DNA of 63,751 nucleotides, counting the filler, from Dugesia japonica (taxonomy: Eukaryota), in the NCBI GenBank assembly GCA_001938525.1. It is 5 parts of 5 records of this genome, joined end to end, with 100 filler letters (N's around TTAATTAATTAA, not from the genome) between each part and the next. Parts side by side here need not be neighbours in the genome. Positions count along the whole stretch, not along the records: positions 29,086 to 40,253 come from MQRL01641766.1; 4 more parts are not named here. One strand, given 5' to 3'. The position numbers were made by a program, and so were the translations under genes. Every line of letters begins with the position of its first letter. Position 1 is the first letter of the stretch. The notes below the pieces were generated by a model. That model ran no database searches. It saw nothing but the letters and a program-made list of their open reading frames with translations, and was not told where the DNA came from. Below, piece by piece: positions 3,901-61,699 of this stretch.

Positions 3901-4010
3901 TAAATTTATCGATTTATTTCACAGGTTTTATAAAGTTAATTGGTTCTTAACATTTAAAATTCTCATTAATTTACATTATAGTAAAACAAAAACCAACACA
4001 TTATAAAATT

Positions 4011-7744: not shown

Positions 7745-7900
7745 GTGTCCAGGATGTCTTAGTCTGGCTAAACCCCCCAAAGAATTTGATCTAGTGTCCC
7801 AAAATTAGATTTTCGAAATGGAGCCATTGACTCGCAACCCGTAGTTTGAGTACATGCTCGCATTCCTTTGGTTTGGGCTCAATTTTTATGATACTCGCTT
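7745..7900 (-). repeat. Inverted copy of the 740-900 repeat
   Basis: Reverse-complement similarity seen by eye. Confidence 0.75.
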
Positions 7901-8152
7901 TTCTTCGTGAAACACACTTACCCCTTATTGTCAATGATGACAACGATAGCGTTTTGAATCATATCATTATATCTGACCGTTATAACTCTCAGAGTTATCA
8001 TTTGGGCAGGTTAACAAAGAGGTATTACAGAAGTTATGGTTGTTATTGTTAACAGAGATTTAATATTGAGGATTATGGAAGAGTGAGTTTATTATTATCA
8101 TACTAACGTTTTGGTTTTATACCTAGAAATCATCATTGTGTCATATGGTAAT

Positions 8153-12600: not shown

Positions 12601-14142
12601 TTGATATACGTACAGATCACAAAGCACTCAAATTTTTGAAGTCCACAATTTNATGCATGGTTAAGTGAATTATCTAGTTATGATTTTGATCTGAAATAAC
12701 GGAAGGGTGAAAATCATAACAATCCAGACGGATTATCTAAAATATTATTGAGCTATTGCTCTCAATGTCAAAGTGAACACGTAGAATGAAAAATAGAAAA
12801 GAGCAGAGTAAGATTTTTAAATGCAATTTTGTCAGAAGAATTTAATATTGAAACGTATCGTGCCGTTCAAGATGAGGATTCTGTTTTGGAAGCAATTAAA
12901 GTTTTTATTATGAAACCCTCTTTGATAGTACCAAAGTTAATCCAAGATTCTGTGTATTTTCATAAATTAGATAGGATATTGTTGAAAGATAATTTATTAT
13001 TAATAGAAAGTGAATATAAACAGAAGATAATCATTCCGTATACGCCGTATCCGTCGAGAGGTTTTTGGTACATATGTATAAAGAAATTTATCACTTAGGT
13101 GTTAAGAAAACTATAAATTATATTGATAGTCATTTCTTTTGGATAAACATGGTAACAGATACAAAGTCGATTATAAAAAATTGTGAGTCGTGTATGAGAA
13201 GGAAGACCCTAACATCAAAGACAACCGAATATTTAATACCAAGAAATGTTATGAACTCTATGGATCAAATCGTGATAGGTACTGAGCATATGAAGGAAAG
13301 CAGACGCCGTAATCGTTATATGGTCGTAATAATTGATCAATTTAGCAAGATGATTAGTTTAGGACCAACACAAAAACAAGATGAAAATAATATTCACCGT
13401 GTTATCTTACATCAATGGATTTACAAATTTGGAAAAACGAAATGGATTGTATTAGACAGAGGTAAAGTCTTCGAAAAGAATCAGATCAATGGTTTGGTTG
13501 ATAAATTTAATATTGAGTGGATTTTTACTTCACCATATGATCATAAATTGAACGGTTTAGCAGAGNNAGCAATTATGACGGTCCGAGATATAATTGTCAA
13601 TTTTTCATATGATGGACAAACATGATTGTGCTGGGACGAAATCATACCGAAAATTGAATATTTCATTAACTTAACGATACAAGAGTCAACAGGATTTTCT
13701 ATGATGGAAAAATATTTGGAAGTAAGATAAATATTCATGGCAAAGATCCGTACTTAAAATTGGATCAAGAACAAGTATTGTCAAAGGTACGCGGTAATCT
13801 TGAGATTTCAGCAGAAAGAATGAAAGGTAAAGCTGTTGAGAAGAAGGTGCACAGAGTTTTTGAAGTGGGACAGGAAGTTTTGGTAAAAATAGATCCTCAA
13901 AAGAGACGAAAAGATGGCAATATATATGAAGGTCCTGTAAAGATCGTTGCTTTTCCAACGGATCATAAAGTCGAACTAGAGTATCCAGAGGGAAGGAAAT
14001 ACAGAAGAATTGAATGGCTGAAAGAGTACCACAGTTCTTAAAGAAATGGAGAGTAACAATAAGATAATATTGTTGTAATTGTTTTATAATAAATTTTTGA
14101 AAAGCGTATTATTATTTAATATGTCAAGATGGTATTGTAACT
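9614..14142 (+). mobile_element. Near full-length decayed Ty3/gypsy element (family A), LTRs 9614-9714 and 14052-14142
   Basis: Gag (WLQSIEDF), CCHC knuckle CYCCGDPGHVRNNC at ~10611, degenerate protease, RT (SSLDLGQAYYQ, MPSGFSTAPATFQ, YLDD), RNase H (ELLAI, TDHKAL), integrase (HLGVKKT, IIDQFSK, NGLAE, YEGP). PPT AAAGAAATGGAG lies before the 3' LTR. Many stops and frameshifts. Confidence 0.95.
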
Positions 14143-26550: not shown

Positions 26551-28985
26551 GTTACTTGGGTTTGAAAAACTCGTCGTTTTATCAATATCAAAATCCGAAT
26601 TCATAACAATACTTTATTAAAATCAAAACTTTAACCAACATTCTCATAGCTCGTCATTGCGTGTGACCCATATGCAATTACTCTTTCTTGCCTATTGTTG
26701 TCTTTTTAATAAAGTACTATGCCAATCGTATCGAAACTCGCATTCGTGTCCAAAATAAATCCTCTATTTATATCTGGAAAACATAATATTTGAGACATCA
26801 TTAGTGCTTATTTCATTGCATTAAAAACTTCTTCTAATTCATTAGCCCATTCAATTTTCTTGTTACCTGGCCCACTACACAGCTGTTCCAGTAATCTAGC
26901 TTTCTTTGAATAATCTTTAATAAACTTTTTATATATATTGCAAATTTCCAAAAAGCTTCTCATTTTCTTAACGGAGTTTGGTTTACCGAAGTTTTTAATT
27001 GCTTTTATTTTAGTTGGATCTGTTTTGACACCTTCTTTACTGATAACGTGTCCCAAAATTTTGATCTCCTTTTGCATGTTTTGGCATTTTTTCGGATTAA
27101 CTCTAAGACCAGCCTTCATAATTTCTGTTAATACTCTATTGATTATTTCATAGTGTTGCTACTTTGTTTCGGTAAATATGAGAATATCATCTAGATAAAC
27201 CATCGCTCCTTTTATTTTTCCGATTACTTTATTTATCATTTCCTAGAACGTACCTGGTTTAAACATAATCGTATATCCTTTTTTTTCTTGATCCAAACAC
27301 AGATTAATGGCACTTATCTTTCCAATGTTCTCCAATGAGCTGTTATTCGCGCAATGCAATTGTTCCTCGCTCTTCTCTAACATTGTTTTTCTGAGTCTAT
27401 TAAATCCTTCCATGCTCATAACATTTATTCTTGCTCCTGTATCCAACAAACAATCAAACTGTTCACCCTTAACCATCACTGAAATGNTGGGTCTCCCTTG
27501 CATTTTATCATACGAAACTTCTGCATTCTGTTTTTCTTCAATTATTCCTATCACTTCTGCTTTGTTAACTTCCGCATCATTCAAACTTTCTCTTTTTAAG
27601 AATCTGTAGACGTTTTCTCTCAATTTACTAGTCTCATCCCATTTCTCAGCCTCTTGAGGATATTCAAACGGTATCTCGTTTAATGGATGGCTCCGGCAAA
27701 CTCCTCTACAGATGGAGCCCTACCTTTTGGGTATTCTCTTCTTGGATAATCATTTTCTATTATGCTCTCCAAAAATCTCTCTTCATTCTCGTCATCAAAT
27801 TCTTCGCGAATGGCATGAATTGGTTTTGAACTACTCCAATCTTTTGTTTGTTGTCCGATTCTAAAATTGTATCTTCTCTCTTATAGTCTAGGTTTACTTA
27901 TGTTTGAATAACATTTTTCTGCTCAGTGGTCTGGTCTTTTACATCTACCGCATGCAATTTCTGTGCACATCCTTCTAACATGACCAATTTTACGACACCC
28001 AAAACATTTTGGTGGTTTCTTGTCTAGACAATTTCTACTTAAATGCCCTTTTTGTGACAAGTCCGACCTTCCACATGAGAATTTTTGGACACTCTCTTTT
28101 TGTATGCTTATAACTCTGGCTTGTCCAACACTGTGGTTCTGTTCTTTTTGCAACTCTCTCAATATTTTGTATCCTCTCCCCGATACGTTCTCCGAAACGT
28201 TCTCCACGTGTTACACCAGCGTAACTCTTTACTACGTTAATAGGTTCTCTTCTTTTTATTCTTTCAACCAAAGATAACGTTTCTTTTATGTCTTCTACTT
28301 TCTCCAATTTTTACATGATAATCTCTTCTTCTGGTTTTTTACTATTTCCACAAATTATTAGCATTTTTTATAAGAGTTTTTCTTTCGTCAACTCTCCATT
28401 TGCTAAAGATTTATCGACTAAATCTTCCACTTTTTAAAAAACATCTCAAGTTCTTCATCACCACGTTGATAGCTAACAAGATTCTGTAAATCTTTTATTA
28501 TGTCTCTCTTGCTCTCAAAAGCTAATCGCAATCTCTCTCGATATCCATCAGCTTTCTTAAATGTCTTTACATATGCTTCCATTACATCCTCATGAAGCAT
28601 ACATGCTACCCAACGTTCCTGATCTTTCTTAGCAACCATGTTATCTGCCTCAAAGTATATACTTTTGGCAACAACCTTTCTGTGATTGCATCAGTGTTTA
28701 CCGCTGCCACCATGTTAGATGGGTTTGGAAAACTCGTCGTATTATCAATATCAAAATCTGAATTCATAACAATACTTTATTAAAATCAAAACTATAACCA
28801 ATATTAATTGTTAAACAAACAAATTAAAATCATGTGTTTTAGTTGGTGATCTTCTTTTCTAAAATTTAAAAATTAAAACTTTTATTTATTAAAAAATTAA
28901 ACTTTATTACATATAATTTTAATTTATCCTTAAACTAATATTTGTTTATTTAAATTTTTCATCAATAATTTAATCTCTCTTTTAG
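26550..28985 (-). mobile_element. Internally deleted Ty3/gypsy element (family B)
   Basis: 5' LTR 28713-gap, PBS TGGTGGCAGCGGT (tRNA-Leu-type) at 28700-28712, gag with CCHC (CFGCRKIGHVRRMC), protease LLDTGA, RT YLDD and ILGHVISKEGV, RNase H start, then a partial 3' LTR at 26550-26640. Confidence 0.9.
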
Positions 28986-29153: not shown

Positions 29154-32100
29154 CACTGAGCCGGATCTGTTACCGAAAAATAAAAGGCGGCGACATCATC
29201 GTTTTCATCCAAATGGACCCACGTTTAATTGCCTATCTGGCGGGAAAGGTCGGCTATGAACTGTTTCAATTTTCCGTTGTAACAGTTGTTTGTTTGCGGC
29301 TTCAAGGGCCTTGGTTTGGGCCGCCAGGTCACTCTGTTTTTTCACTATCAAATCCATTTTTTTATCAATTTTTCCCTCTGGGCCAAGTGTTTAAGAAGAG
29401 CCCGGTCTGTTTTACGATTTAAGTGTCGTTCCAGTAACAGACGGCGCAGGACTCGATGACACCGGTGGAGATTATTAGGAAAATTGATACGAGGCACTAA
29501 AGGAAATTAAATTAATAATTAAGCAACTATGCAGCTAAGCTTATGTAAAACATAAGGATAAAAGAAATTGATCAAAATAAAATGATTGAATAATAGATTT
29601 TTTTATAAAAGCTTAAACGGGTTAAGTCCGAGAGGTTTGGGTGCTCTTCTCGATCATCAATGGTTCGAGAGGGATTCTCGCCCGGAGACGTAAAACATCG
29701 TTAACCAGTTTATTTTCTCTGTCATGGCTGGACCGGATAACTTCCGCAAAGGACTCAACCTGTTTCTTCCAGGTTCGATCCTGTAGTGAGAGGCCTCGGT
29801 CTGCTTTTTGAAAGCGATACATTTCTTCTTATAGCGGGTTACCTAACTGTTAGTGGCAGCTATTTCGGCCTCCCATTGACGCTTTGCCAGCCGATACAAA
29901 TCGAGGTCCTCACTGGTTTCTCGTAGTTTTTTATTCGGGGCCTGCGATCTATTCAAGGAGGAATGCACTGAAAAATTATTATTATGAACAATAAGACATA
30001 CAATGCTTAAGAATACATCCCTGAATTAATATATAATATAATTTTCCTTTAACCAATGTATGTAGGGTAAAGTGGATTAACAAAGACGAAATATTTATTT
30101 ATTTTCAGTTCTAAGTACAATAAGGAACGGTTTAGTGTGGATCAGTATTATTGTCGATAATATTGTTGGTGTTTTCGACATCATTAACCCCAGTTGGTTC
30201 TCTCACACCCCAGAGTAAATTGGATATAAAACCCTACACTGCTAGAGGTGGAGCTGGAGGTTGATAATTAAAAGATGTGACATGACTGCGTACGACCCGT
30301 TCTACAGCTGGATTTGTATCCTCTCGCCGAATCTCTGGATGCAAGCCACTTTAGCCTGCACTGGAGGCAAATTATCTCGATCCACCAATATACCGGCATC
30401 TCTATTATGCGGATTAAGGTGGCGTCTAAAAACCACCCGACGAGTTCTGCGATCTATTATCTGTTCCCAAACCGAGTCCATTCCTGGGGAAAACTTTATA
30501 ATAATTATTACCATAACACTAACGACAATTTATATAGGTTTATATGACAAAATTTGTAATAAAACAAGAGATGATACACACACATCTAGTCTAAACGTGA
30601 AGTAAAGGTGTAAGATTCGTTCTACATGGATTAACCTACATGCCCATCGACTTATCGTTCTTCGTCTAAGTCTACTTGTTTAACTAGGGGAAACATTTCT
30701 ACAAAGCAACACAGATTCGTCTTGTCTAGATGCTCAATTCTCCCTTTAGTCACTAGATGAACTATTAACTGTCTTATTCGGACAGTTTGACACAGCTGCT
30801 TTATCCGCCGAAGGGTATGACGCAATTCCGCTGGCATGATCTAAAGAATTAAACCGTCAAGGATAGTTATGAAATTTAGGACTGAACAAACCAAGAACAA
30901 AATTCCATTGTTACTGCACGATATTACTTACATGATAGTTGCCATTAGAGTCAAATTGATGTGCACAGAATAATGATAGACATGATCGCAATAATCCTTA
31001 AAATCGATAATGGTTACAACACTTTTACTACTGATTTGATAATAATAATCTTACACTCGGTTTTGGAACTAACCGTCCTAAACATACAACAATAAAATTT
31101 AAAAAAATAAAGACGGCAGTCTTTGCTAAAACAATGAAGTTAGAAATCAATTGACTGGTGCCATCCCTAATATTAAGCAAGAATTACGAAAATCACATTA
31201 ATAATAATAACATTAATAGTGATAAAAACAGTTTTCTTGAGAGCTTTAATAATAATAACTATAATGATCGTAATAATAGTGGCAATAATAGCACTAATAT
31301 TGGTAATAATCCTCATTATGACGTTAGTAAGGCCAGTTTTAACAACACCAATCACGATAGTATTAATAATAATAACAATAATGAAGACAACAACATTTAT
31401 GATGTTAATAATAATTATATTGGTATGCTCAATTTTAGATTATTTATTGCTCAGATCTATTAAAATCGGTGGATGTGCTGAATTTTGGTATTTTCCCCAC
31501 GTGACACAAAATAATACTTTCTCTTAGAATTTATTAATTTGCCCGAAATTTACAAATTAAATAATCGCGGTAAGTGGTTGCCTAGCAAAAACAACAATTT
31601 ACAATAGTGAGCGTTACACACCAGTCTTAAAGGATAGCCTGTGTGTATGTAGAAAGATTTATCATATTACCATCGATGACTTCACTCAGGTTACTATGAT
31701 GAAGTTATTCATTACAGCAACTTAAGTTGCTATAATGAGTGGCGGATTGATTATTTTTATATGAGATTTGTGGAATTACTCCTACTCACAGCTGATTTAT
31801 AATTTACTACTCATACAATTGTGTAGATCATGCAGTTGAGAATACGATTTTCGCATAAATTTAGTCAACAAAAACAAAACCTCATTTCCTTACTAATAAA
31901 ATATTTTTAAGTTAAAATAAAAATTTGAATTAAAAACTTTTTATTTATTCAACTTTAAATTTACTTTAATTTACTAATACATAACAGAATACTTACTATC
32001 AAATTTTTAGTACGATTTCTGCCCCGGTGGCTAACAATAACAGATGGATGCACAGTGTTCTTTTTTCTTCTTTTAATTGATACAAAAAGTAACAATTTTT

Positions 32101-33275
32101 GCTGTTTTAGTAAGGTTGAAAATCAGTAAAGTTTAATGAATATAATCACTTTGGTGGTACGCGATAACTGAGCAAGTTGATTTCCGTTTGTTGATAACAT
32201 AATAAAATTCTGCCGAGAGTTTTTCTTTTGAGAGTTAACGAATCATTTGTTAGTTTTACGAGAGATTTAGTAGTGTTTTTTGTCAATATTCTGCTAACTT
32301 TATGCTTCTTTATATATGGCTTTTCCTCGCACCCCAACTTTGTTCATAATCATTGGTTATTTTTAACTGGAACTTTTGGCTTCCTTTTGGTTCTAGTGCC
32401 AATTTTCTAAAAAATCTTTTAGAGTTTTGGAACCGCAATTGGTGGTTGTTTTTGGAATGACACATGATAATTGTGTCTTTGTTTTATTTTTATTTTCAGG
32501 TTTCTTATTGGCCCGATCTTGAAAACCCTGCAGCAACCTTCTGGGTGGTGGTAAGTTTTTTTCTGGTAAAGTACCGATAAACCCTTCTGAATCCTTTCGG
32601 AATTTCCTTATTCTGGGCTCCTCGGATTTTTGGGGCCAAGATATTGGGATAAAACCGGATTTGAATTAATTTTCTTTTATTTTAACACTTGATTAATTAA
32701 TATTTTTCTTATAATTAAGTGTTTTATTAGATATTTTCTTTTCTTCTTATTTTAATAATTTATAATTTGTTCTAATTGATTTAAAATAGATGGATGCTGA
32801 TTTTGATTACCCAGTTTATTTTCACTGGTTTTTCGTATTTTGTTCACTCATTAATTGATTTCCAACCTGGTTTTTTTATTCATCTTGTTTTAACCATCTT
32901 TGGTTGATTTTCATCTGTATTTATGATTCTTTTCCTTCTTTTACCATTTTATAATTTGTGGCGGCTTTGCCTTTTCTTTAGCGGTGTGTTTCATCCCAAC
33001 AAATTGCTCTCCGTTTTATTTAAATTCCGTCCCGAAATTTTCCATTATCTATCCCCGTTGCAGAATCCTGTACCCTTATAAAACTGACAGAGCAAGACGC
33101 AATTTAAGGTCATTGCATGTTATTTGTTTAGCACATACATAAAAACTTTTTTACGTTATACATTTAAATACCATATACCTTAATATATTATAGTTCGTTA
33201 CTCTAGTTAGTTTCACAACATCATTTATCGTCTAGTTTTGTAATTACAGTTTATTTATAGCGAGTATAGTTTGTT

Positions 33276-34438
33276 TTAATCGACTTCTTCTCCTATGTTG
33301 TGTTGAAAATTGGTTTGTGGGTTGAAGCCATATTTCCGTAATATTTCGGTTACGATTGATTGGGACAGATTCTTTTTGAACTGAATGTGATCTAACACTG
33401 AAGTCTTGCTGGTTATTCTGCTAGGTGCTGTGGAAACGTGTAAGATACTCTGGGGTTCCTGGATTACCAAGAGTGCAGGTTTTCTGGGTTGAGCCGAGAT
33501 TGTGGAGGGTGTTAGATTTCTGTTTGAGGCTGAGTCTATTACCTTATTTATCCATTCTGGAATTTGGGATTTAGCTGGAGTTAACATGAGGTCCTGGATT
33601 AATAATGGTAAATTGTCTTGGTCGACTGAAGATTGTTGGTTGCCATTCGGGGCGGCAGGATTTAGGGTTGATTTGGGTGAATTGAGGATGATTAAATTCC
33701 TTTGGGGAGATGGGATTGGTAGTACTAATGGATGAGAGATAGGTTGGCAAACTGCGTGAGACTGTTGCAGCTCTTTGATGGTTGAAAACTGGTCGACTAA
33801 GTGTTGTTGTTTTTGCCTTATCTCTTCTTCTTTTTCACGGTAGAGGTTTCGCAGCTCGTCGATTTATTGTTCGAGTGCTTCTATATATTGCTCCTGAAAT
33901 TTGTTCTTTTGCTGTTGTTCTTCAATTATACTTTCAAATTCTAACGAAAGCTTATCTATACCTGCTCGAACACCTTATCTGTTAGCCAGGCTTGTCAGGA
34001 GTTGATTTTCGGTGGCTAGATGATTTTTTTCAAACTGGGTGTTAAACAGTTCCATTCTCAGGATTTTTGTATTTTCTTGTTCGATGATTAATTGGGTCTC
34101 GAGAGCTTTTCTTTTGGGTTCGACTTCATCATATTTGTTTTTCTAATTTCGGACTTGTTTAATGGCATTTATCTCGGCTCTATTGGCATCGATATTACTT
34201 TTAAAATATTTTTTATGGGACTTGCATGACCTCTTTTTGTTTCTAACATCTGGTTAGCTCTCTCTGCCTGACCTTCTAACTCACTATTATACTTTTGCAA
34301 TTGTAAGTTGGATAGGGCATCTATTTTGGATTCTAATTTCCATTTAAGGACTTCAGGTACGGTTGTGAGGGTTCGAGTTTGGATTTGCAATAATTGAATT
34401 TCGTTACGTAGGTGATTTATCAGATTTTTGTTATTCAT
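33276..34438 (-). pseudogene. Accessory ORF D: long coiled-coil followed by a Pro/Ser/Thr-rich region (~385 aa; several stops and a frameshift)
   Basis: The 34169-34438 ORF joins via EPKRKALETQLIIEQ...EEQQQKNKFQEQYIEALEQ...LPIPSPQ to the 33276-33587 ORF. Confidence 0.6.
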
Positions 34439-34531
34439 TTCTAAATTAGAGAGAGTGAATAATTTATTATAAAATTTTGATAATTATATGTATATATATA
34501 TTATACCGTATTTAGATTTTGAATTTATTTT

Positions 34532-35574
34532 TTATTGAAATGCTATCCCCAATACCCTACGTTCAATTATCTTCCGGCACATAGGGCATTCGTTTAATTT
34601 TATCGCACAATTATAGCATGTTTTGAAATGTCCGCATGGAAGGAAAATAATTTCTATAGTTTTCGCCAAGCATATGACACAATCGTTATCCATTAATGCC
34701 CATTTTTGTTCAAATTTTACTTGTTGACCTTCTTTTCGGAGCGACTGTTGGTATAATTCGTATAGCGTGATTAATTTAGTCCCTTTCTCTGTGACCGTTT
34801 GTTTTATTAGTTGATCGATATTTATCTGCTTTAACTTTAAAATATTGGTCAGCCTGTTGGTCTGTTATTCAATTGCAATTTCTATTCTGTTAAGAGACAT
34901 ATTCCACTTGATTCTACAAGTGGTTGCTAGTAATTCTTCTTCATCGATTTTATTTAATCTTGAAAATTTTGTTGGTGGTTGAATATCTTCTTTGGTAATT
35001 TCTCTACTCCTTTTGCGAGTTTACCAATCTATTAAGGTAGTTTAGCTCTCTCGTCTGATCAGAGATTAGATCGCGTGGTTTGGCTACTAACTCCATTGTA
35101 TACTTCTGTTTTTCTGTAGTAATTTCCAGCATTTGTCGATTTTCCATTATTTGTTGTCGACAAATAAAGGTTTCTGCATATAAATTCTCGTTTTGAAGTT
35201 GTAGGATTTTATTTTTAAATTCTAGCTCGCACCAATCTAGGGTTTTCATAGTTATTAGGGTTTGCAATAGTTGATTCCGACTGTGCTCCAGTTCTTCTAA
35301 TCGTTGTGGAGTCCATTGAGTTTGGATTTTAATGCTATTACATAATTCTTTCATTTCCTCATTATGATTTCTCCAGATTTCATTTATCGTTACTTGTGAG
35401 GGTATCATATTTGTAGGATTATTTACTAGTGACAAATTTCTGGTAGAATGGTTGACTCGTTGTTAGATCAGTTTGTGAGTCCATGTTTTCATTTTTGGTC
35501 GTATTCTGGTATTTTCCTTCAGTTTCTATTTCTTTTTGATTTATTTCTGAATGTGAAACATCGATTAACTTCAT
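34532..35574 (-). pseudogene. Accessory ORF C: coiled-coil plus C-terminal C3HC4 RING finger (IAP/MDM2-like type), putative E3 ligase
   Basis: Minus translation ending at TAA 34532: DNDCVICLAKTIEIIFLPCGHFKTCYNCAIKLNECPMCRKIIERRVLGIAFQ*. It links to coiled-coil ORF 35004-35435 through one frameshift and one stop; the 35574 ATG needs a further frameshift. Confidence 0.85.
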
Positions 35575-35648
35575 TGCTGTTTTTATCTATATACATATTC
35601 ATTAAGTAAGTTTACAATTTACACTATTTACACAGATTTGAGATTAGT

Positions 35649-37268
35649 TTAGCAAGTCATTACCCCTGGTGCCTGATAGGGTTTAGGCACATATGTGGGT
35701 AATTCGTTCGATAGTATCCCCAGTGGTAGTTCTTCGTAATTTGGTGGTGCTAATGGTAGGTGTCGTCTTTTCTCATTTCGACTATGTTTCTTCCGTTTCG
35801 GTTTTGCTTGTTTACAGAATTGCACATATAGTGTGATTAATACTAGTGCCGCTATTGATACACTTCCTATTATTATGTGGTCTGTTCCATTTTGGGTTGG
35901 TTTGGTGGTAGTGATTGGTTCCTTTATTATAGTCGGCCCACCCCATATCATCCGGTGATCTTACTTTGGCTGGTAATTCCTCAGGTTTTTCATTAAATTG
36001 TTTAAGAAGTTTGCTCTATTTTTTTTCTTTTCCTCGGTGGCCAACGTAGTCCGTGTTTTTGTTTTCGTTGTTATTGTGGTTTTTTCTGTGGTAGTTCTAG
36101 TACTTATTTTAACCTTTGGTTTAGTAATATTCAGCTTTATTCTTAAATCCCGATTAATAACTGCAGTGAATTCTATCTCCCACATTTCTGGTCCAAAACT
36201 ACCCATGTTTGTTCCTTGTTCCTGTAATGCATTTTCTTTGAATCCTGATATTTTTTCATTATAAGCCCATCCCCATTGAGCGAATGAATAATACTTGTTC
36301 TTTTTTTTCGTTAATTCGTAATTGATATGTGTTGTTCATTTTTCTGATCGGTACGGGCCTTGGACTTTCCTGCCAACGATAACCACATTATCCAAACATG
36401 TATTCGGTTATCGAGCGGAATCCTTTTCCCCAGTTAATGGCTATACTTTTTTGTTCCCTAACACCCGTTTCTTATCTGTCGATTCCTTAACTATATTTTT
36501 CAAAAATTGGATATGGAATAGGTATTCATTCTGTGGGCAGATTTTCACGTTCTTGTCTCCTTTCCGTTCCCATGTCCATTCCCTTTGTCGCGGGTTTTCT
36601 ATTACGTAGTAGATTAGGAGATTACGTGCGTGATGCATCTTAAAATTTATTTGGTGCTCATAATCGCCATGATTTCTTTTACGTTTCCCTTGAAATTCTT
36701 GTGCCGAATACATCCACCAATTCTTTATGTTGAAATGCATTGCCTGACCTTCTACTGGTGCTTCTCCTTTATACCATAAACTTGCTGTCCACCCATACCA
36801 TGATAATAATATTTGATGTTCCTTAGTTCCTTCAATGGTAGGTTTTAGCAATATCGACTCATGTTCCTATCCTTCGAAAACTTTTATTTCACGTCTTCGT
36901 CCATCTGTGCTCATTGTTCGAATGGTGGTTTTGCGGTCGTTGAAATAAACCCTATGTTCCGTTAATATTAACTCATTGGTCCAACAATCTTGACATTTAA
37001 TTCCCTTCATCACTATTACTAAAATAGTGATTATAACTTGTCTATTAGATATTCTATTCTGGTTTTTCCCTTTTCCCATATTTCTGATGAGTTTCATGGT
37101 TAACCAAATTAATACGCCATGGTCCCAATTTGTGTTGATTACTGCCCATAACAACAGAGATATTTTGACTATTATTTCTACTGTAATCACGTTCTTGTTT
37201 TCTTGTGGTAACCCGCTTTCTGATTTTCTTGGTTCTGTTTGATCCACCCTATCCCGCAATAATATCAT
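35649..37268 (-). pseudogene. Accessory ORF B: Env-like type I membrane glycoprotein
   Basis: ORFs 36867-37268/36441-36851 and 35961-36206/35649-35951 are each in frame across a single stop. Features: signal-peptide-like VIITILVIVMKGIKC|QD, Thr-rich stalk, NIT and NGT sequons, TM IIIGSVSIAALVLITLYV, basic stop-transfer, tail with PPNY and LPTY. Confidence 0.65.
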
Positions 37269-37300
37269 TTTCCTTTTTCCCGCCCTTCCCGGCGTTATTC

Positions 37301-38713
37301 TTACCCTTCCTGAGGATTTGTGATAATCCTTGGTTTTGATTTCCTACAAGCCAATTTATCTGATTTTATGTCTAGTAACGTCATATTTTTTAGCTTGTGA
37401 TTACTTTGAATAGCTGGCTCGACCATGCCCCACGGCAATTGGATCTTCAATGGTTCATATACTCTAATCCAGTTCCATTGTACTAACGTATGGTGAAACA
37501 TTTGAATGGATTTTAATAATTCTTTGCTGTAAATATTTGTGCATGGCATGCACAATTTTTTTATGATAGATTGGCGAATGAGGACTTAAATTGGTATTTT
37601 AATTCGGTATACATCACAGTCTTTCCTGAACCAATTTTCTGGTTTGAATAATCATGCTCTTTGATCGTAAATGGCCTTTAGTGTGTTCTTTAATATTATT
37701 TGTGTTTGTCTGATACATTGTAAACAATTCTCCTCCAATTGCTGTGCTGACAGCGGACAGGTTAGATGGTTAAGGTGATTACAACTTTCTTCGGATCTTA
37801 GTGTCCGGCTCCCCTGGCAGGTGATTGTATAGCATGTAGTAGCATCCATAGCTTCAGGTTCCAGGGGTCGACGCATTTGATTATCTGAACCAAAAGATAC
37901 AGTTTTAACTTCTTGTGCTACAATGGCTGATTTATCATTAATCATAGATAATGTTGTTGGAGTTTGAGAAGGACGACTAATACTTGGTGTCTTAATTATT
38001 TTAGGCATAACCAATTTGTTCGAATCATTCGATTCTTTGGTGACTAATGCCATATTTCCGCTATCTTTCATCTTTCTTTCTTTCCTTCATTTGTCGGCAT
38101 ACTTTAATACGCCCTCCTTCAATAACCGCGTTATTTTTTGCAACTCTGTTTCTATCCTTTCATCTTCTTTTGGTTGTATGTCTGTTTTCAGTTCTGAACT
38201 TACATCTTTCTCCACTAGTTCCGCTTCCCCACCTTCTTCAGACTCAGCGTCCTCGCTGAGACTTCTTTTCCTTAATACCAATTCTAAACCACTCCACGTT
38301 GGAGGTTCTACTGGTTGAGACCATAATATCAACCAGTCCCATACTATAATTATCGTATGGAAATTTTCAAAAGCTCGAGTGAGAGTTTTGTTTTAAATAC
38401 TTGCACAACATTCGAATAGAGTGTGTAAGTCATCGGGTGTCAGTTGCCCGTGAATTGTCAGCTTGTCATGCATTTCCTTACAACGTCTTCTACGGAGTTC
38501 GTCTTGTTGTAACAACCCAAGTCTGCGACTAGCGATTTCCCGCAATGTTGATTTCAAAATTGATTGTAATTTCCGTATGCATGCAAGGCAACTTGCCTCA
38601 ATTAGAGTTGGTGAGATTGGGCATGTCACCTGAGAGAAGTGCGCACAACAGTTCTCGGGTACCGGTATCTGCGTTTCTCGTGGAATTATAGGATAGATTG
38701 TCATGGTACCCAA
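37301..38713 (-). pseudogene. Accessory ORF A: ~470-aa protein with two copies of a Cys/His-rich domain
   Basis: Track ORFs 38393-38713, 38087-38332, 37652-38071 and 37301-37555 share one frame, separated only by point stops. Confidence 0.7.
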
Positions 38714-38729
38714 TGCTTTAACTCGATGG

Positions 38730-40253
38730 CTTAACTGATGATTTTCCGAGTGTCATCATGGCTTGTTGTGATCGTAATGTATAACTATGCGATACATTTA
38801 ACTCCAGATTCTCTGTTTTACGTGGCCTACCTGGGCCTCTGTGTTCCGTCGTAGTTGGCGCAATTTCCTCCATCATTGCAGCCTTCTTACATAAGTTGGC
38901 GTGGTATATTTTGGGTTTTTCGAAGAGATTTCCTTTCTTTCAAACTTTGAGATTGGTTTTGGTTACCTCAATCACCTCAAATACTTCGTATGGTCCTTGC
39001 CATGGCCTTTTTAATTTTGATGTAGTGCCAACAAAAATGTCTGGTAAATTGATCAATACCATGTCGCCTTTTTTAAATGAATGTTGTATTGCCGTTTTAT
39101 CGTGCCAATTCTTATAGCTTTCCTGGTAAAACCCTACATTCTCCTTGGCTTGTTTCCATATTTTCTGCATAGTCTCTTTGAAATTTTCAGCGAAATCTGT
39201 TTCGTCTTGGTATTGTGTTATAGGTAGCTGAAATTCTAAGTCAATTGGCATGTTGCATTCTCTGCCGTACATTAATCCAAATGGAGTGTATTTTGTTTCT
39301 GGATGTACACTCATACGGTATACAAATAAACACAGCTGGATATGCTTATCCCAATAATTTTGTTCTTTTTGAGCATAACTGGATAGCATATTGATCAAGG
39401 TTTTATTAAATCGTTCCGTTAGTCCGTCTATTTGTGGATGATAAGGTGATGTTCGTTGTTGATGTATTTTGAGGAAGCTTGATATTTCTGCCAGTATGTA
39501 GCTCATAAAATTTTTTCCTTGATCGGTCAATATCTTTTTAGGTGTGCCATATCTGCTGAAAAATTTTCGTACCAAGATATCCGCCATGATGGTTGCTTTT
39601 TGATTTTTTATAGAGAATGCCTCCGGGAATTTTGACAAGTAATCTATGATTGTTAGTATGTAGATGTTTCGACTCAGCGTCGGTGGTAACGGTCCAACTA
39701 CGTCCATAGCTATTATTTCCATAGGTGTGGCAGAGACGCTATCGGTTTCTATAGTGCCTTCATTATTTTGCCCGTTGCTCTTCTGGCAGCACATATTTGA
39801 CATTTGGCGATTCATTCCTTTACTGATTCTGCCATATGTGGCCAGTAATATTTCTGTCTTAATTTTGATTCGGTCTTCTTATGAGACATGTGTCCTCTTA
39901 ATACTCCATTGTGATATTGCTCGAGTAATTTATCGCGTCTTGCTTTAGAAATGACTAATACAGTATTTTCTCCGTCCTGAGCAGTCAGCCATCTTTTAGT
40001 GACTGCATAACGCCCTCCGTTTTTCTTTAAGTGTTCTTTCATCTTGGGTTTGCATTCTAACTTCTCTAAATTGTAATTTTCCATATATTTTGTGATGATC
40101 TTGATCTCTTCATCATCAGCCTGTGCCTGTTTCAGCCCATCAAAATTTCGATCCTCGGATAAAATGAAGTATACCATATCTACTTTTTTCTCTAATAGTT
40201 CACGTAATGTGAATATTTCCGTATCTTCCGGGGTACTTTCTGTGGCTTCTGGT
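38730..40253 (-). pseudogene. Gypsy pol C-terminus: connection domain, HHCC, DDE integrase, GPY/F, AT-hook
   Basis: KQAQADD, YHNGVLRGH...YYWPHM, AMDVVGPLP, IIDYLSKF, LTDQGKNF, SPYHPQIDGLTER, WQGPY, then past a stop HANLCK...RGPGRPRK...YTLRS. Confidence 0.95.
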
Positions 40254-42444: not shown

Positions 42445-44510
42445 AGAAATGGAGGAAGCTCTAAATTATTGAATATAATATATAAATAAGAATAAAGAAG
42501 AAGATTGAAAGATTGGTAGAAATGTTAATGGCTCATAAATGGAACAAAGAGNANTTGACAAAAAAGCTAATAATGAATAGTTGCAACGACAGAAAGATTA
42601 AACATAAAATCAAATCAGGAAAAATAGAAAACGTAGACGATGTATTTAAAGCAATAAAAGAGTGGGAAGACATAAAAGACGAAGTAAAAACTGAAGAAAT
42701 AAATTTAGTTCGTAACTACAGAGATGCAGTTCGCCAAAGTCCAGAACAAACAAATTTCAACAAGATTCGAAGTGTAGGAATGCAACAGAACAGAAACAGC
42801 GAAAGACGAGAAATAACGTGTTGAACCTGTAACATAATAGGTATTGTAAGCAGAAATTTTCAAGAAAAAAAATTGTTATGCTTTGTGAATCTGAACAACA
42901 CTTAAGAAGAGACTTTACCAAAGTTAGTTTTTCAAGACGCAACAAAAAAGGTCACCATACAGAGGACTGTTACAAAAATATGAACAGAAATTTATGTTAT
43001 CAGAATAAAAGTGAACAGACCAGAAATATATTCGGAAATAACAACCAAAAATATTATTCGAACAACTAAACAAGAAGGAATGAAAGCCAGGTTAATTTAA
43101 TTGAGGAAAATGGAAAAGATTGTGTATATAGAGAAGACAAAGGCCACTATTGTAATGACGGGTCAAATAATTATCAAGATGAATACCCAAATGGCCAAGC
43201 TCTGACCGAAGTTGAGATTGTTGGAGCGTTGAATTAAGTATCCCAAAAAATCCCAGTATTGTTAATTATATTTTAAGTAGTATAAATAATTATATAAATA
43301 AAAGAAACGAAGATAAGCGAGTAGGTGAGTACAATGATGTAAAAGAAAAAGTTTACAAGTTTGTAAAGAAATAATTGATTAGAGCCCAGTCATAGATGAT
43401 CAATGATATAAATGGAGAAGATGACAGTGAAATTCTGACGATAGATGAGATAAAGAGACAAGAGATAAATTATGACAAGATGCAAGGTAGACCAAGTATA
43501 ATAGTTGAAATACAAGGCGTAAAAATTGATTGCTTGTTAGACACTGGAGCAAGAGTTAATATGATGAGTTTGAGAATTTTGGAAAGATTGGGAAAAGTCA
43601 ATATATTAAAAAGCGAAGACGATTTAAAATGTGCCAATAATAGTCCGCTTGATTTAGTAGGTACGATAAAGGTAGAAGTGGAATTCGAGAATAAAAGCGA
43701 ACCAGTTAAATTATTTGTCATTAAACAGATACATTCAGATTTTATAGAAGGAAATGAATTACAGAAGCAGTTTGGATNNNAACTGCTGAGAGAGACTAAA
43801 TGTGAGGACAATGAAATGTATCTTTGTAATATAGAAGCAAAGTATGGACGCAGTACATCGGATGAGAAGAGAGTACAGAGAGCAATAAAAATATTGATTA
43901 ACAAGACAAACGAGAATTTAGAAAATGTTAGAAGGATTTATAAAGTAATATTCATGGCAAACAACTGGGATATCAGCAGAACAATAATGGCAGAACATTA
44001 TATAATTACAAATGGATAACAAATATATACGAAACCATGGAGACAACTAATGTATTTAGATAATAAGATTGATGAAGCTATCAAGACTTTGTTTATAAGA
44101 CTTTGGCATTATTAGAAAGTGTAATTCGCCATGGAACACCCCATTAATATGTGTTTGGAAAAAAGAAAGAAAAGGCGTTAGATTATGTCTAGATTTTAGA
44201 AAACTGAATGCAATCACAGAAAGACAGATATTTCCGATGTCCAATGTAGAGGAAACACTAGATAATTTGAGTGGTGCAAGATATTTTAGTAATATTAATT
44301 TGGGTAATGCATATTATCAAGTTCCGTTATATAGAGAATTACAAGAGAAAACAGCATTCTCTACGAAAAATGAACAGTATTGTTTAACAAGTATGCCTTT
44401 TGGTATAGCTGCAGCAACTGGAACGTTTCAAGAATTAATGACAAAAGTATTAGGAAGATTGAGAGGAACAATGGTATACATGGATGATATATTGATATTT
44501 TCAGAAAATT
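42445..44510 (+). mobile_element. Gypsy gag-pol fragment related to family B
   Basis: YDKMQGRPSI...DCLLDTGARVN, SPWNTPL, RLCLDFRKLN, YYQVPL, MPFG, YMDDILIFS. Confidence 0.9.
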
Positions 44511-45049
44511 TAAATATTTGTTGCCATTTAACAAACTTATTTAACCAAATACTTATATTAGATTTTAGACTCATTTTAACTTCCAAATTATCGTTTGAAA
44601 TCCAGTTACTTAGTTTACCTTTACAAATTTTTCGAAAATAACTCGTGGCTATACACAACAATTAGTATAAATANNNNNNNNNNNNNNNNNNNNNNNNNNN
44701 NNNNNNNNNNNNNNNNNNNNNNNNNNNNNNNNNNNNNNNNNNNNNNNNNNNNNNNNNNNNNNNNNNNNNNNNNNNNNNNNNNNNNNNNNNNNNNNAAATA
44801 TTCTTTTTGTATTTTTATTAAAAATTTAGTTAGTAAATAACATTTTAATTTAGAAAAAAAAGTTAAACGTAATCGAAGTAATATTAAACCGCCACTATTG
44901 CTTTATACCAATCAAAACAGAATACTTGATGCTAAACAAAAAAAGGATATTTTTAGCAGAAAAAAGTCCCTTAGTTCGGCATCCGAAAATTCTCAAAATG
45001 CTGTGTAAGATTTCATTATTTTCTTATTTTTACCAATTACTCATCATCA

Positions 45050-50203: not shown

Positions 50204-50355
50204 GAACGATTGACAATGTAGAAAATTCTTCATTCGATAATACAGACATTGAAGAAGAAATCGATTTAATTCTGAATGATTATAAAGGAGATGAAAAACC
50301 GTGGTATAGAGATCCAAAATTAAGTTCTAGTTCTAGCACAGTTTCACCTATTAAA
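50204..50355 (+). CDS. Candidate exon of an unidentified host gene
   Basis: TTTAG acceptor, open frame TIDNVENSSFDNTDIEEEIDLILNDYKGDEKPWYRDPKLSSSSSTVSPIK, GTATGT donor. Further exon-like pieces at ~52012-52330. Confidence 0.35.
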
Positions 50356-50419
50356 GTATGTAAAATATGTTAATTTCAGTCTGGAAATAAAACCAATATC
50401 ATTTTATAATTAACTCAGC

Positions 50420-51470
50420 ACTCCATTTAATTAAATATTTATTCATTACAACAAGTTTCGACAGTATGTCTGTCATCTCCAGGCAAACTGTTTAAAACTA
50501 AGAATAGAGTAGATATACTAAAGTTCCGCTTTATGCAATCGATTATGTAACAGTCTCAAAAAAATTCTAATTAATTAATTTGAAGACATTCAATAAACAT
50601 TTATTGACACCAGTTTGAACATTAATTTTCGGATCATATGATATAATCATCAATGCTTCGCACATGACTCTTTCCCAATAATCTTTAAAATTTCTGCATA
50701 AAATTTTGAAATTATTAATTTTTATAACTGATTCACACTGAANNNNNNNNNNNNNNNNNNNNNNNNNNNNNNNNNNNNNNNNNNNNNNNNNNGCACAGTT
50801 TCACCTATTAAAGTATGTAAAATATGTTAATTTCAGTCTGGAAATAAAACCAATATCATTTTATAAATAACTTAGCACTCCATTTAATTAAATATTTATT
50901 CATTACAACAAGTTTCGACAGCATGTCTGTCATCTCCAGGCAAACTGTTTAAAACTAAGAATAGAGTATATATACTAAAGTTCCGCTTTATGCAATCGAT
51001 TATGTAACAGTCTCAAAAAAATTCTAATTAATTAATTTGAATACATTCAATAAACATTTATTGACACCAGTTTGAACATTAATTTTCGGATCATATGATA
51101 TAACCATCAATGCTTCGCACATGATTCTTTCCCAATAATCTTTAAAATTTCTGCATAAAATTTTGAAATTATTAATTTNNNNNNNNNNNNNNNNNNNNNN
51201 NNNNNNNNNNNNNNNNNNNNNNNNNNNNAGTATATATACTAAAGTTCCGCTTTATGCAATCAATTATGTAACAGTCTCAAAAAAATTCTAATTAATTAAT
51301 TGAAGACATTCAATAAACATTTATTGACACCAGTTTGAACATTAATTTTCGGATCATATGATCTAATCATCAATGCTTCGCACATGATTCTTTCCCAATA
51401 ATCTTTAAAATTTCTGCATAAAATTTTGAAATTATTAATTTTTATAACTGATTCACACTGAATATGATAA
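50420..51470 (-). mobile_element. Penelope-like element 3' ends (GIY-YIG C-terminus and 3' UTR), three near-identical copies separated by gaps
   Basis: NNFKILCRNFKDYWERVMCEALMIISYDPKINVQTG matches the PLE endonuclease end (FxIL...RxxxEALxI....PxLNxQ). Degenerate hammerheads at ~50443-50486 and ~50903-50944. Confidence 0.7.
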
Positions 51471-55975: not shown

Positions 55976-58839
55976 CATATTCATATTGAATTATCTCGAA
56001 ATTCGGTGGGAGATTAAATTCAAAAAATATAAAAACTTCCGATGTTATGTCGCAAATTATATTCGAAATTGTAGTATAATGCACTCGTTTATTAAAATAA
56101 ATGAAATTGTTGATTTTGATGACCACAATATTGTCAATTTGGAACCTACAATGATCTCAAAAATTCCCTCAGACTCTTACTATAGCTAAGGTTGTCAAAA
56201 AAGATTCTTGAAGTTTCAAAAACAACAGTTATCTGCCGAAATTAATAACCTAAATGGAATTATTTCAAATGATTCTATAGTGATGATGAATAATTTCTTC
56301 AAACTTATTAAAAAATAATACAAGGGATTTAAACTTCAATTAGATATTATCTCTAAACTAGGTAAAGCTGTCAATAATTATAAAGTAGATAGTGATGAGG
56401 AAACTACTAATGTAAATAAAGCTAAGAGATTTGTTTACTGGACACTCAATCTTTAAAACTTCCAATAAGTCAAAGAAAATACTTTCCATTGAAAGCAGTA
56501 AACATTTGCAAAGAATTATTGATTACCTTAAAGATTCTTTAGAGACAACTATCAATGTTGACAAATCAGGTAATATTAAGAACAATACCACAGATAAAAA
56601 TTTATTAACTAGTGGAATTTTAAATTTAAATTGTGAAATTAAAGCTGAACCAAGAATTATTGACGATAAATTTGCTACAATGAGTGAAATTAAAAACACT
56701 AAAATCTGTAAAATATGCTCAAATTCTGAAAATACTCTTGACATTGAGATAAACAATTGCTCAGTTGTCTTATGTTGTCTTTGCGTAAATAATTTCACTG
56801 ATAAACTCAATACGGAAATAGACGCTGAATCCGTTGTGTCAGTTAGTAAAGTTACAAATTCTATATCAAAGAACTTACGGTCAGCCATTCGAAAGAAATT
56901 ACTGCTCACTAATAAATGACGGGTATTAAAACAATTTAAAAATGTTAACTTTGTTGTCTCTGTTATTCCAAATGATATTTGTTTGTGTTTATTGGTTTAT
57001 TCATTAACTTTAAAACTTAGCTACGTGTTTAATTTTAATGACTGGACAATAACTCATCGTCTATGGGTTATAGAGGAAAATATTACAAACTATCAGAACA
57101 ATATTGGTTTTACTAGAAATCACGGCATTCTTCACATTACTCATGCTACTAATAAACCTTTGTATATTGCTGCTGCGTTCATTCAGCAAGTTAAGAGCAT
57201 GATTACAAGTCGTGAATTCTAAATTTTTACTAATCGTAAAATCACTTGAAAACTTATTCACAAACATGTGTAACGAGACATCAGTAAAACTCCACAATAT
57301 CAATTGTAAAATTAAAAATGATACTATTAATAAATTTTCTAATAATCTCCAACTGTCAAAACATTTTGTTTGGCTATATAGAACTATGTGTAACGCTATT
57401 TTAGATGGTTGCACTGAACATATGCTTGATCATTTAAATTTCGATAACTTTGTAATGTAAAAATAATTTTAGCAATCTTTAGTCGTCCAAAATTTCATTG
57501 TCTGCTATTCATTAATGATTATGAAATATCTGAGCACTACTTACTAAATCCAACGACTCTTATTGAAAAGAAGAGTCATTTGGAAATTATTAAAAATTTA
57601 CTTCTGAAAATTAATGAGATCGCCTGTCGTGAGAATTACTTTTCAACAACTGTTCACATGATGTGCGAGGTTCTGGTTTGTTCTCAAAAGTTCTGATGTT
57701 GTTTTATTAATCATTTTGCATTTGCCCATTCACTTAGCAATCTAAATATCAAAGAAATAGGTACCATACTTAATGGGCTATGTCATTCAAGTGACAAAAC
57801 TAATCAAGTTGAAATATTTGAAAGCTCAATGCCTCATATACATGCAGAAAGGTTTAATAAAGAAAATCGCATAGAAAATGCTAACAAAATACTTGTCGAG
57901 ATCGAAAATTTGGATACTGACTCAATTATTGAGATAATAAAAATCAATACTTAAAGTCTAATGAAGCTCAAACCTTTCCTTGGTAAAACAAAACTCAAAT
58001 TAAATATCGATAAATATAAACTTAGATCAGATCTTAATAAGAAATTGAAAAAAACAGTCTACTCCATTCTTTCAGATGGAGATTCAACAAATGCGAGACC
58101 AACAATAGACGATATTGAAAAATATTTTCATCATGATGAACCAGATAAATTCAAGTGGAATCTTAACGAAAGATGTGTCAGAAAATCTCTATCTACATTA
58201 ACACTCGATCAAATTCATCCTTGCGATATTCTTAATGAATTCAAAAAAGTAAAAAATACCGCTCTAGGGCTCGACAATATCATCAATAAAGACATTAAAT
58301 ATCTCGGTCTTGAAGGAAAATTACTTTGCTACCTGTACAATAAAATTATATCTATATATAAAAAATATATCATACCAAATACTTGGAAATCATTCAAAAC
58401 TATTCTAATTCCAAAGTCTGATAAGAAGAATTTGTATATGATTTCATTCTGGCGGCCAATTGCTTTACTGTCAGTAATATACAAAATATTTGCAGCAATT
58501 CTTAATAGTCGACTGAATTTTTGGATCAAAGAAAATAATATTCTTCATCAATTTCAAAAAGATGACTCTGAACATGAAGGATGTGCTGAACACAACTCAA
58601 TCTTAACAGCGGATCTAGAATACTCAAAATACAATAAATCCTGTCAAACTGGTATAACTTGGCCGGATATAAAAGACGCTTTTGGAAGCATTCCTCACGA
58701 ATACATGTGATCATTGATCCGTTGTGTTGGAATAGATGAGGCCTTCATTAATATTGTAAGAAACCTATACACAAACTCTAGCTCAATATATCGCTGTGGC
58801 AACATATTAACTCAAAGTATTCCAATAAAAAAAGGTGTC

Positions 58840-59291
58840 TGTGAGGTGTTTTGAAAAGTAGGCTGAAATTTTGTGTGATTGGTGATCTTATTTTTAAAAT
58901 CTTTTGTTTAAAAGAGTGATTTAAATTATTGATGAAAAATTTAAATAAACAAATATTTGGTTTAAGGATAAATTAACATTATTGAATTAAATTACTTTTA
59001 GTAAATAAAAATTTTCAATTTTTAAATGAAAATTAAGTAAATAAATAAACTATTTTTTAAAGGGAAATAAATAAAATTTTAAAAATGTTTTTAATTTAAT
59101 TATATAAAATTACTTTTAATAAATAAAAAGTTTCAATTTTTAATTTTGGAAAAAAATCAACAATTAAAACACGGAATTTTAATTTGTTTGATTAACAAAA
59201 ATTATTGGTTAGTTTTGATTTGAATAAAGCATTGTAATGAATTCAAATTTTGATATTGATGATATGATGAGTTTTCCAAAGTCAACTAACA
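58840..59291 (+). mobile_element. Family B solo LTR (452 bp) with TSD GTGTC inserted in the RT
   Basis: TG...CA termini, GTGTC at 58835-58839 and 59292-59296. The reverse complement matches 28713-28985. Confidence 0.92.
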
Positions 59292-59972
59292 GTGTCAAAC
59301 CGTGTTGTCTACTTTCAATGACACTTAAAATAAATCCCGTGTAAGAAGCTATAAGATACACACCAAGTGTTCCTAGATTTATGCTTGGTGATTCTGGAAT
59401 ACAAGTTTTGGCATATGCTGATGATATTTCACTGATAGCAAACAACGTTGAAGATCTGCAAAAGTTATTAAACCAAGCAACATTTATTTCAATAAAAATT
59501 AGATTGGAATTTTAGCCAGATAAATGTGCTTATCTCCAATTAGCATGAGTGAATAACATAAATGAAATCTCAATTTTTAAAAGGAAAGCAAAAAATCTTA
59601 CAACGAATGAACTTTATCAATACCTTAGTGTTCTAATTGGAGAGTCTACTGATCAAACACCTTATCAAACGTTTTCAATTTTTGTAAAAGATGCTAAAAA
59701 GTTGGCAAATTCTGATTTATAAGGTTTGCAAAAAGTGTTTCTTCATTCTATATTGATATTTCCGTTCCGCACTAGGGAAATTAAAACAAAAGCTTTAACT
59801 GCATTTAATTGTAACCCTCATTACAATTATAATATTACTAGTAAATTAAAGGATCAACTAAGAAAAATGATAAACCTTCCAAGACATTCAGAAATTGTTT
59901 ACTTTTATTGTTCAACAGAAAATAGTGGAGCGAACTTTGTTAGTCTATTGGATGAATAGCTATTAATAAGAA

Positions 59973-60373
59973 ATGGCAAGAACAAAACCAACTGCTCGTA
60001 AAAGCACTGGAGAAAATGCACCAAGAAAAAATTTAGCAACAAAAGCAGCAAGAAAAATGCACCAGCTACTGGAGGTGTAAAGAAACCACATCGTTATGGT
60101 CCCGAAACTGTTGCTCTTAGAGAAATCAAATGTTATCAAAAGAGCACTGAATTGTTGATTAGAAAATTACCTTTTCAACGAGAAATCGCTCAAAATTTTA
60201 AAACTGATTTGAGATTTCAAAGTTCTGCTGTATCAGCTCTCCAAGATGCAAGTGAAGCATATTTGGTTGGTTTGTTTGAAGATACAAACTTGCGTGCCAT
60301 TCATGCTAAGAGAGTAACTGTTATGCCAAAAGATATGCAATTGGCTCGTAGAATTCGTGGAGAACGCGATTAA
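59973..60373 (+). pseudogene. H3: Histone H3 retropseudogene
   Basis: [28 protein letters not shown], a 1-bp deletion near 60058, KKPHRY...LLIRKLPFQ(RLV deleted)REIAQ...RRIRGERD*. Flanked by ATGAATA at 59952-59958 and 60413-60419. Confidence 0.95.
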
Positions 60374-61699
60374 GGAACTTAACTTATTTAAATATTGAGA
60401 ATGAAAAGAAAAATGAATACCAACAACAAACTGTAAGGAAACAAAAAAAATCAATAGAGATACTTTGTGTTTTGTCACAAATTCATCTGTGAAAACGATT
60501 ATTCTATCACGAATCAGCATTTGCATTTCTAAACTATAGTGATAACTTAAATAAATTCAACTCTAGAAAATCTCAATGGATAAGACCTAAAAATGCATTA
60601 CATTTCTTCAATAAAATTCATAATATCAAAAGAAATTTTGAAATGTTTAATAAAGATGTTGCATTGCACATAACAACTATATCAAAAGGCACATTCTTAT
60701 TAAGTAGAAAGTTTTGTAGTGAAATCGTCTTTATTCTACATAGAGAACTTCAAGAATCATATGCACTAAAATGGCATAATAACAAAAAGAGCAATTTAAT
60801 TGCTGATGCAGTTAGATTAACTCCTGGTATCAATAAATCAATCTTTAGAAGCGACCTTGGAATATTTGCATGGAACTACATTCGTAAAGCTCAGACTAAT
60901 GTATTATCAATTAATGTGAGACCTCAAAACATTAATACAGAACAAAACCTGTGTCGTCGATGACGCGAATGTAAAGAAACGATAGTGCACGTGTTACAAA
61001 AGTGCAGAGTAACAAAATCACTGACAACAGAACGCCACAATGCTTGTCTTGAAAAACTTGTTTTCTTTCTTAAACCACCATCAAGAATTATCGTGGGTGA
61101 TCACACATGTTCATTTGTTCCTGACTCTAAGCAAAGAGTAGATTTAATAATTACAAATGATGAGGCAAAATCAATACATTTAATGGACATTAAATGCCCA
61201 ATAGACTCAAATGGAAATTTTGTTGAGATTGACAAAAACAACATTGAAAAATACACTAGTCTCAAAAATAAAATCAGAACTGTCAAACCTGATTACAAAG
61301 TCGAACTTAGAACTTTCATTGTTGGCTCTCTTGGAAGCTTTACTAAATCTACTTATTCAACTCTTTCTGAAATAGGTCGTTCTAGTGATAAAATCCAGTC
61401 AATCTTGAAACAATGTGCTCTGTCAAACATCGAGCATTCTACGCAAATTTGGAAATATCACTCGAGTGGGAAACTAAGTTAAATACTCTAACAAATGTAA
61501 AAATATAAATAAACAAATTGTATATAAAATGAGATAAATCACTGTAACTGTATTTAAAATCAAAAAACAAAAAAAATTTGTAAGCATTATGTAATTAAAT
61601 TAATTGAAATGAAAAATGATGATAAGCTTGATTATATTGCCATAAAGTCTTTTTTGAATAAAGATGTTTTGTTAACATTCTACTATGGTAGAAATGCTA

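Follow-up and report, generated by a model that had tools for sequence, protein, structure and literature searches.

A retroelement gene that lies downstream of pol and encodes a predicted membrane protein raises the question of whether it is an envelope gene or something else. Here, we address this question for ORF-B, a reading frame on the minus strand of a 63,751-nucleotide stretch of Dugesia japonica DNA, filler included (hereafter the window), which an initial annotation had described as an Env-like protein with two PY motifs in its cytoplasmic tail. As judged from its sequence, ORF-B is an orphan, selected and PY-tailed predicted surface protein, encoded in an array of four accessory genes that belongs to a Gypsy family, and the copy in the window is dead. 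All ORF-B features listed in the initial annotation were found where it had placed them, on the minus strand, and its observation was confirmed overall (Table 1).

Table 1. Features of ORF-B and of the element that carries it (positions in the window)
Feature	Position	Strand	Support or remark
Ty3/Gypsy integrase, broken	38943..40252	minus	Integrase_H2C2 E 1.2e-11, rve E 1.7e-14
ORF-A, 483 codons, 4 stops, twice-repeated Cys/His module	37301..38752	minus	repeat 38% over 66 aa, E 4e-13
ORF-B, decayed predicted type I membrane protein gene	35649..37268	minus	539 codons, 5 in-frame stops
ORF-B, marginal upstream hydrophobic segment, aa 27-45	37134..37190	minus	KD 2.06, summed dG 3.3, one E and one K
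ORF-B, signal-peptide-like h/c region, aa 78-92	36993..37037	minus	basic n-region precedes
ORF-B, ectodomain, 291 aa, aa 93-383	36120..36992	minus	W/Y/F-rich, all-beta prediction at low confidence
ORF-B, Thr/Lys-rich stalk segment, aa 384-411	36036..36119	minus	14 S/T, 7 K/R in 28 aa
ORF-B, single TM helix, aa 464-482	35823..35879	minus	Cys and basic cluster behind
ORF-B, extended PY motif PPxYxxL, aa 508-514	35727..35747	minus	PPNY core aa 508-511, 35747-35736
ORF-B, second PY motif LPTY, aa 523-526	35691..35702	minus	tail sequence
ORF-C, helical region and C-terminal C3HC4 RING, broken	34532..35462	minus	zf-C3HC4_3 E 5.5e-15
ORF-D, charged helical (coiled-coil) region and Pro/Ser/Thr-rich region, broken	33276..34483	minus	no family match above cut-off

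The frame of ORF-B (37268-35652, minus) is interrupted by stops at 36869, 36443, 36410, 36338 and 35963, as against 54 and 32 stops in the remaining minus frames; 5000 shuffled versions of the sequence contained 39 stops on average and at least 19. Because its stop count is far under those of the shuffles and the other frames, ORF-B is a genuine, decayed gene, and the copy in the window is broken and dead. Three of the stops are packed into about 110 bases (36443-36336), and single-frame residues in this part are therefore unreliable; the 57-residue tail is free of breaks. The strand is rich in A (0.37-0.42), the same as in pol and the neighbouring ORFs. The codon-position model was too weak for frames to be called from it. 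Two RNA runs, each covered to about a quarter, gave no read on 241 bases of ORF-B, a result that speaks neither for nor against its expression.

The host element is assigned to the Ty3/Gypsy retroelements by the H2C2 and rve domains predicted in its integrase. The closest near-full-length relatives of this integrase were Gypsy pol proteins with about 40% identity (208 matches among 999 candidates), and the family is therefore one without a close entry among the searched pol proteins. Gag, the remaining part of pol (with RT) and the 5' LTR were lost at an N gap and a (TAT)n array, and comparison of the window with itself revealed no LTR pair, the 5' part being lost at the N gap. ORF-B is the second of four accessory ORFs that follow the integrase on the same strand. 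The module repeated in ORF-A reads CxH-x4/5-CP-x9-CxxC, followed by a CxxC-like pair and WxW; no match to it was found in Pfam or PHROGs, and ORF-A is possibly a new zinc-binding accessory protein. ORF-C, with a predicted coiled coil and RING, is likely to be an element-encoded E3 ligase that is broken here, and since this RING gene lies directly behind ORF-B, the element would carry further parts of the ubiquitin pathway. For ORF-D, only a sub-threshold match was obtained in Pfam, and a search of the ESM Atlas gave no usable match.

The window as a whole is AT-rich (GC 0.21-0.39) and contains decayed pieces of Gypsy, non-LTR and DNA transposons, N gaps and (TAT)n arrays. Three other Gypsy-like elements, likewise decayed and retaining parts of gag, protease or RT, are located at 9673-14038 (plus), 26811-28690 (minus) and 42486-44638 (plus), and no such accessory array was seen in them. 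A stretch resembling a non-LTR retrotransposon (57955-61479) includes, at 60002-60370 (plus), what we take to be a histone H3-like reading. Beside N gaps at 50336-51462 are tandem copies that hardly differ from each other (98% identity over 386 bases) and are possibly an assembly artefact.

The topology of ORF-B was derived from hydropathy and charge. As the initial annotation had proposed, a signal-peptide-like segment is present, with an h-region (aa 78-88) that reaches a KD of 2.9 over 11 residues and follows a basic n-region with a net charge of +4. Candidate starts are Met58 (37097) and Met64 (37079), which would give a product of about 480 aa. It had also been suggested that an extra hydrophobic segment upstream of the signal hints at processing by signal peptidase. 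This part could not be upheld: the segment is marginal (summed dG 3.3 versus 0.3 for the TM helix), it belongs to the protein only with a start at Met1, not at Met58 or Met64, and these two starts give an ordinary signal peptide. The ectodomain contains 11 W, 13 Y, 11 F, 3 C and one N-glycosylation sequon, in keeping with its earlier description as Trp/Tyr-rich and Cys-poor. What had been called a mucin-like Thr stalk is indeed a Thr-rich stretch, but not one of the long mucin type, since with 7 K/R beside 14 S/T in 28 residues it is short and basic. A single TM helix follows, with a net charge of +7 in the next 15 residues and the 57-residue tail beyond, which agrees with the predicted single-TM type I layout.

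Both PY motifs reported for the tail, PPNY and LPTY, are present, and the first of them overlaps a YxxL endocytosis-type signal. Two PY motifs occurred in 0.4% of 100,000 shuffles of the tail, PPxYxx[LIVM] together with a second PY motif occurred in 0.07% of 300,000 shuffles, and the background of [LP]PxY in 120 Gypsy pol proteins is 0.015 per 57 aa, all of these odds being computed after the fact for a motif that had been noticed first. By analogy with known Nedd4-binding proteins, the tail motifs are likely to recruit host NEDD4-family ubiquitin ligases.

The accessory array is multicopy. Contigs of all four sequencing runs examined cover each of the 30 bins of 31500-40250, mostly at less than 95% identity, and in other copies, joints within some contigs tie the integrase to the array across deletions (37386-39431 and 37671-39385); no contig spanning the whole array stretch was found among the contigs of the four runs. 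Over ORF-B, the summed depth in run X1 was 780-8000, compared with 7-34 for single listed contigs, and because the former is so far above the latter, it points to tens of diverged ORF-B copies or more, although depth is no copy number. The depth at 32376-33251 and 35004-35295 was about ten times that of the neighbouring bins; these deep parts may be common to deletion derivatives or related families, or may belong to the 3' LTR region.

Variation among the copies was analysed over 35645-35885, the stretch of the TM helix and tail, in 163 contigs of run X1 and 120 of run X6, all at least 80% identical to the window. Among the 40 of 41 variants that were listed, 34 alleles were common to part of the copies, including 21 synonymous and 13 non-synonymous ones, with a pN/pS of 0.21 (0.20-0.31 with transition weighting; p 5e-6 to 6e-4). 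This comparison of the dN/dS type, which the initial annotation had suggested, reveals purifying selection on the TM helix and tail of ORF-B among the other copies. The six alleles that set the window apart from nearly all other copies split 2 to 4 (pN/pS 0.67), as expected for decay following insertion. Differences between copies in the TM helix were mostly synonymous or preserved its hydrophobicity.

Conservation of the PY motifs themselves, which had been anticipated, is borne out in one respect and not in another. None of the 40 listed alleles lies within the eight motif codons (p 0.007 when changes of every kind are counted), but the lack of amino-acid changes in 8 of 69 codons has a p of 0.15 and is not significant alone. 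At L514 of the extended motif only synonymous changes were observed, and the spacer between the motifs (aa 513-522) is variable, with seven non-synonymous alleles at four codons. In several contigs, the agreement with the window ends close to the motifs or between them, and as only copies with at least 80% identity were counted, more distant copies may differ.

Relatives of ORF-B were searched for at several levels. A word-index search yielded 6061 candidates of 296-944 aa and 693 of 30-295 aa, none of which was a relative at E 1e-3. None was found either among 1.84 billion representative proteins or, with E up to 10, in PDB sequences and Pfam, and none of seven pieces matched PHROGs, all with a sensitivity reduced by X positions and the disturbed segment. 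The best match was thus not an ordinary host membrane gene, there being no match whatever among the word-index candidates or the 1.84 billion representatives. Likewise, no ORF-B locus was detected in metagenome or viral contigs, and neither a second copy nor an internal repeat within the window. Single-sequence models contained strands only, at low confidence (pLDDT 45 for 141 aa and 33 for 291 aa), and Foldseek searches of BFVD and PDB with these models gave nothing at E 1e-3. With a low-confidence model, the best VIA-align hit had a Z of 5.3 (rmsd 4.0 over 87 residues), under the usual noise level, and the rows of fibre heads and receptor-binding proteins (Z about 4) were therefore set aside. 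At pLDDT 33-45, the strand-only models do not bear for or against the head-and-helical-stalk fold of F-type Env, the five-domain class III fold with fusion loops of the gB type or the three-domain class II fold. No prior description of such a PY-tailed accessory protein was found in the openly accessible full-text literature, and Repbase-type entries may already hold the family.

Like ORF-B, F-type Env has a signal peptide, an ectodomain and a C-terminal TM helix and is encoded by multicopy genes downstream of Gypsy pol. However, the sole RxxR of ORF-B (aa 373) is followed by 18 hydrophilic residues (KD -0.44), and KRKR at aa 195 likewise precedes polar residues. Because a furin site with a fusion peptide is absent, ORF-B is not an F-type errantivirus Env by these hallmarks, as the initial annotation had suggested; it also differs from this type in having almost no Cys (3 in 291 aa, compared with a conserved cysteine set), in giving no match to F proteins when PDB and Pfam were searched with E up to 10 and in not adjoining pol. 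Class II Env of retroelements has a disulphide-rich beta ectodomain, and this type (Atlas/phlebovirus) is disfavoured for ORF-B, with its three Cys and no sequence match in PDB or Pfam. The HSV gB type is also disfavoured, as the three Cys of the ectodomain do not provide its conserved cysteine bridges. The available text of a recent env survey describes such bridges as conserved in gB-type Env and the furin site and fusion peptide as conserved in F-type Env; it found these two types only, using known Env baits and, outside insects, a pol-env gap of up to 1000 nt (PMC13524379). ORF-A leaves about 1.7 kb between pol and ORF-B, so a survey with this limit could have missed such a type.

Other retroelements offer parallels in gene arrangement. 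The ORF3 types of rotifer elements (PMC5408684) and CERV of Cer1 (PMC10309623), as far as the accessible parts of these reports describe them, are likewise extra genes specific to one family, located between pol and the 3' end, without clear homology and in some cases with a TM helix. In contrast, four accessory ORFs stand in a row here, including a RING gene, and those parts describe no type that is a large type I protein carrying two PY motifs. The giant planarian Gypsy element Burro shares the load of ubiquitin-pathway accessory domains, but in the portion of its description available its gag and pol are separated by an in-frame F-like env and it has MATH, BIR and BCL2 domains, none of which was found here; identity with Burro is ruled out by gene order and domains, as the accessory genes follow the integrase in the present element (PMC6431247).

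The predicted single TM helix and cytoplasmic PPxY/LPxY motifs would place ORF-B with the membrane adaptors of Nedd4, a functional class. For PY motifs in membrane-protein tails, the nearest uses on record are as Nedd4 adaptors and in protein turnover. In the available excerpts, PPxYxxL, the extended motif that ORF-B shares with ENaC, is the Nedd4-binding motif of that channel (PMC2582799), and Commissureless has, like ORF-B, a single TM helix and a tail with PPxY followed by LPxY; its PPCY and LPSY act additively, and both are needed for Robo1 to be ubiquitinated and delivered to endosomes (PMC12101832). The motifs are spaced by 15 residues in ORF-B and by 9 in Commissureless (PMC12101832), and ORF-B, unlike Commissureless and ENaC, is encoded by a retroelement, has a large orphan ectodomain and shows no sequence relation to either. 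The herpesvirus proteins UL56, UL42, ORF0 and U24 are, similar to ORF-B, membrane proteins that a parasite encodes and that carry PY motifs on the cytoplasmic side, through which they bind Itch; as the accessible text has it, they are tail-anchored, their N-terminal part lying in the cytoplasm, whereas ORF-B is predicted to be of type I with an outer domain of 290 aa (PMC5849660).

Based on these analogies, we consider it an even chance that ORF-B is a NEDD4-recruiting surface protein that works like Commissureless or herpesvirus UL56/UL42 and is not itself a fusogen. Translated from Met58 or Met64, the protein would enter the secretory pathway with cleavage of its signal peptide and would expose a beta-rich binding domain on a short stalk, while inside the cell the WW domains of a NEDD4-family ligase would bind PPxYxxL and LPxY. 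Ubiquitination would then sort ORF-B, along with a partner of its ectodomain, into the endosome/ESCRT route, and the outcome would be either removal of a host surface protein or routing of element material to multivesicular bodies. The surface-protein view of the initial annotation is thus supported in part: it is retained in its type I layout, PY motifs, lack of F-type hallmarks and origin in a multicopy retroelement under selection, and given up in the upstream signal-peptidase processing. Against the adaptor function, Commissureless and the herpesvirus adaptors expose little of their chain outside the cell, and ORF-B has about 370 outer residues. This and the env-like position suit a particle surface protein.

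ORF-B might be a new envelope or attachment glycoprotein on budded particles or extracellular vesicles, whose PY motifs would serve as late domains for NEDD4/ESCRT release and cell-to-cell passage, and we regard this as somewhat unlikely. Its size of about 480 aa, the order of signal, ectodomain, stalk, TM helix and tail, the juxtamembrane Cys and the place between pol and the 3' end are those of an envelope, the aromatic-rich ectodomain, modelled as beta at low confidence, suits attachment, and the bait-based survey mentioned above could have overlooked its type. However, it has neither a furin site with a fusion peptide nor an internal hydrophobic segment, only three Cys in 291 aa and no fusogen match in PDB or Pfam with E up to 10, and the late domains of retroviruses are known from Gag, not from Env. 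Moreover, ORFs in the env position have often proved to be something else, according to the parts of two reports at hand (PMC5408684; PMC10309623). An elaborate form of the envelope explanation appears rather unlikely: a complex retrovirus-like Gypsy lineage with four accessory genes, whose Cys-poor beta-sandwich Env, unrelated to the F, gB and class II types, would itself bear NEDD4 late domains; release would then be driven by Env, not by Gag, with the help of the RING ligase of the element. It is quite improbable that the motifs serve only the turnover of ORF-B itself, as in ENaC; ORF-B would then be an element-encoded surface or adhesion protein whose lifetime NEDD4 keeps short, and it would neither sort cargo nor take part in budding. 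The exact ENaC-type PPxYxxL and the overlapping endocytosis-type signal speak for such a function (PMC2582799, available part), but the separately kept LPxY recalls the pair of Commissureless, whose LPxY is needed for cargo sorting in the text accessible (PMC12101832). Least probable, and very unlikely in our opinion, is that ORF-B is a fusogen of the F, gB or class II type that has diverged strongly, or a host membrane gene that was captured and is drifting, with incidental motifs. Env sequences change fast, the damaged copy lowers search sensitivity and the fold searches were uninformative, which leaves some room for this reading; the few Cys, the lack of a fusion peptide, the absence of matches among 1.84 billion proteins, purifying selection on the tail and a two-motif chance of 0.0007-0.004 speak against it.

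The env genes of invertebrate Gypsy elements are now sorted into F and gB types, and ORF-B, as predicted here, would be a third kind of large surface protein, one without a detectable relative. In richness, the accessory array around it appears to equal that of a complex retrovirus. Should the tail act as predicted, a transposon would manipulate host membrane traffic as herpesviruses do, and if ORF-B is a spike, it would represent a new envelope class.
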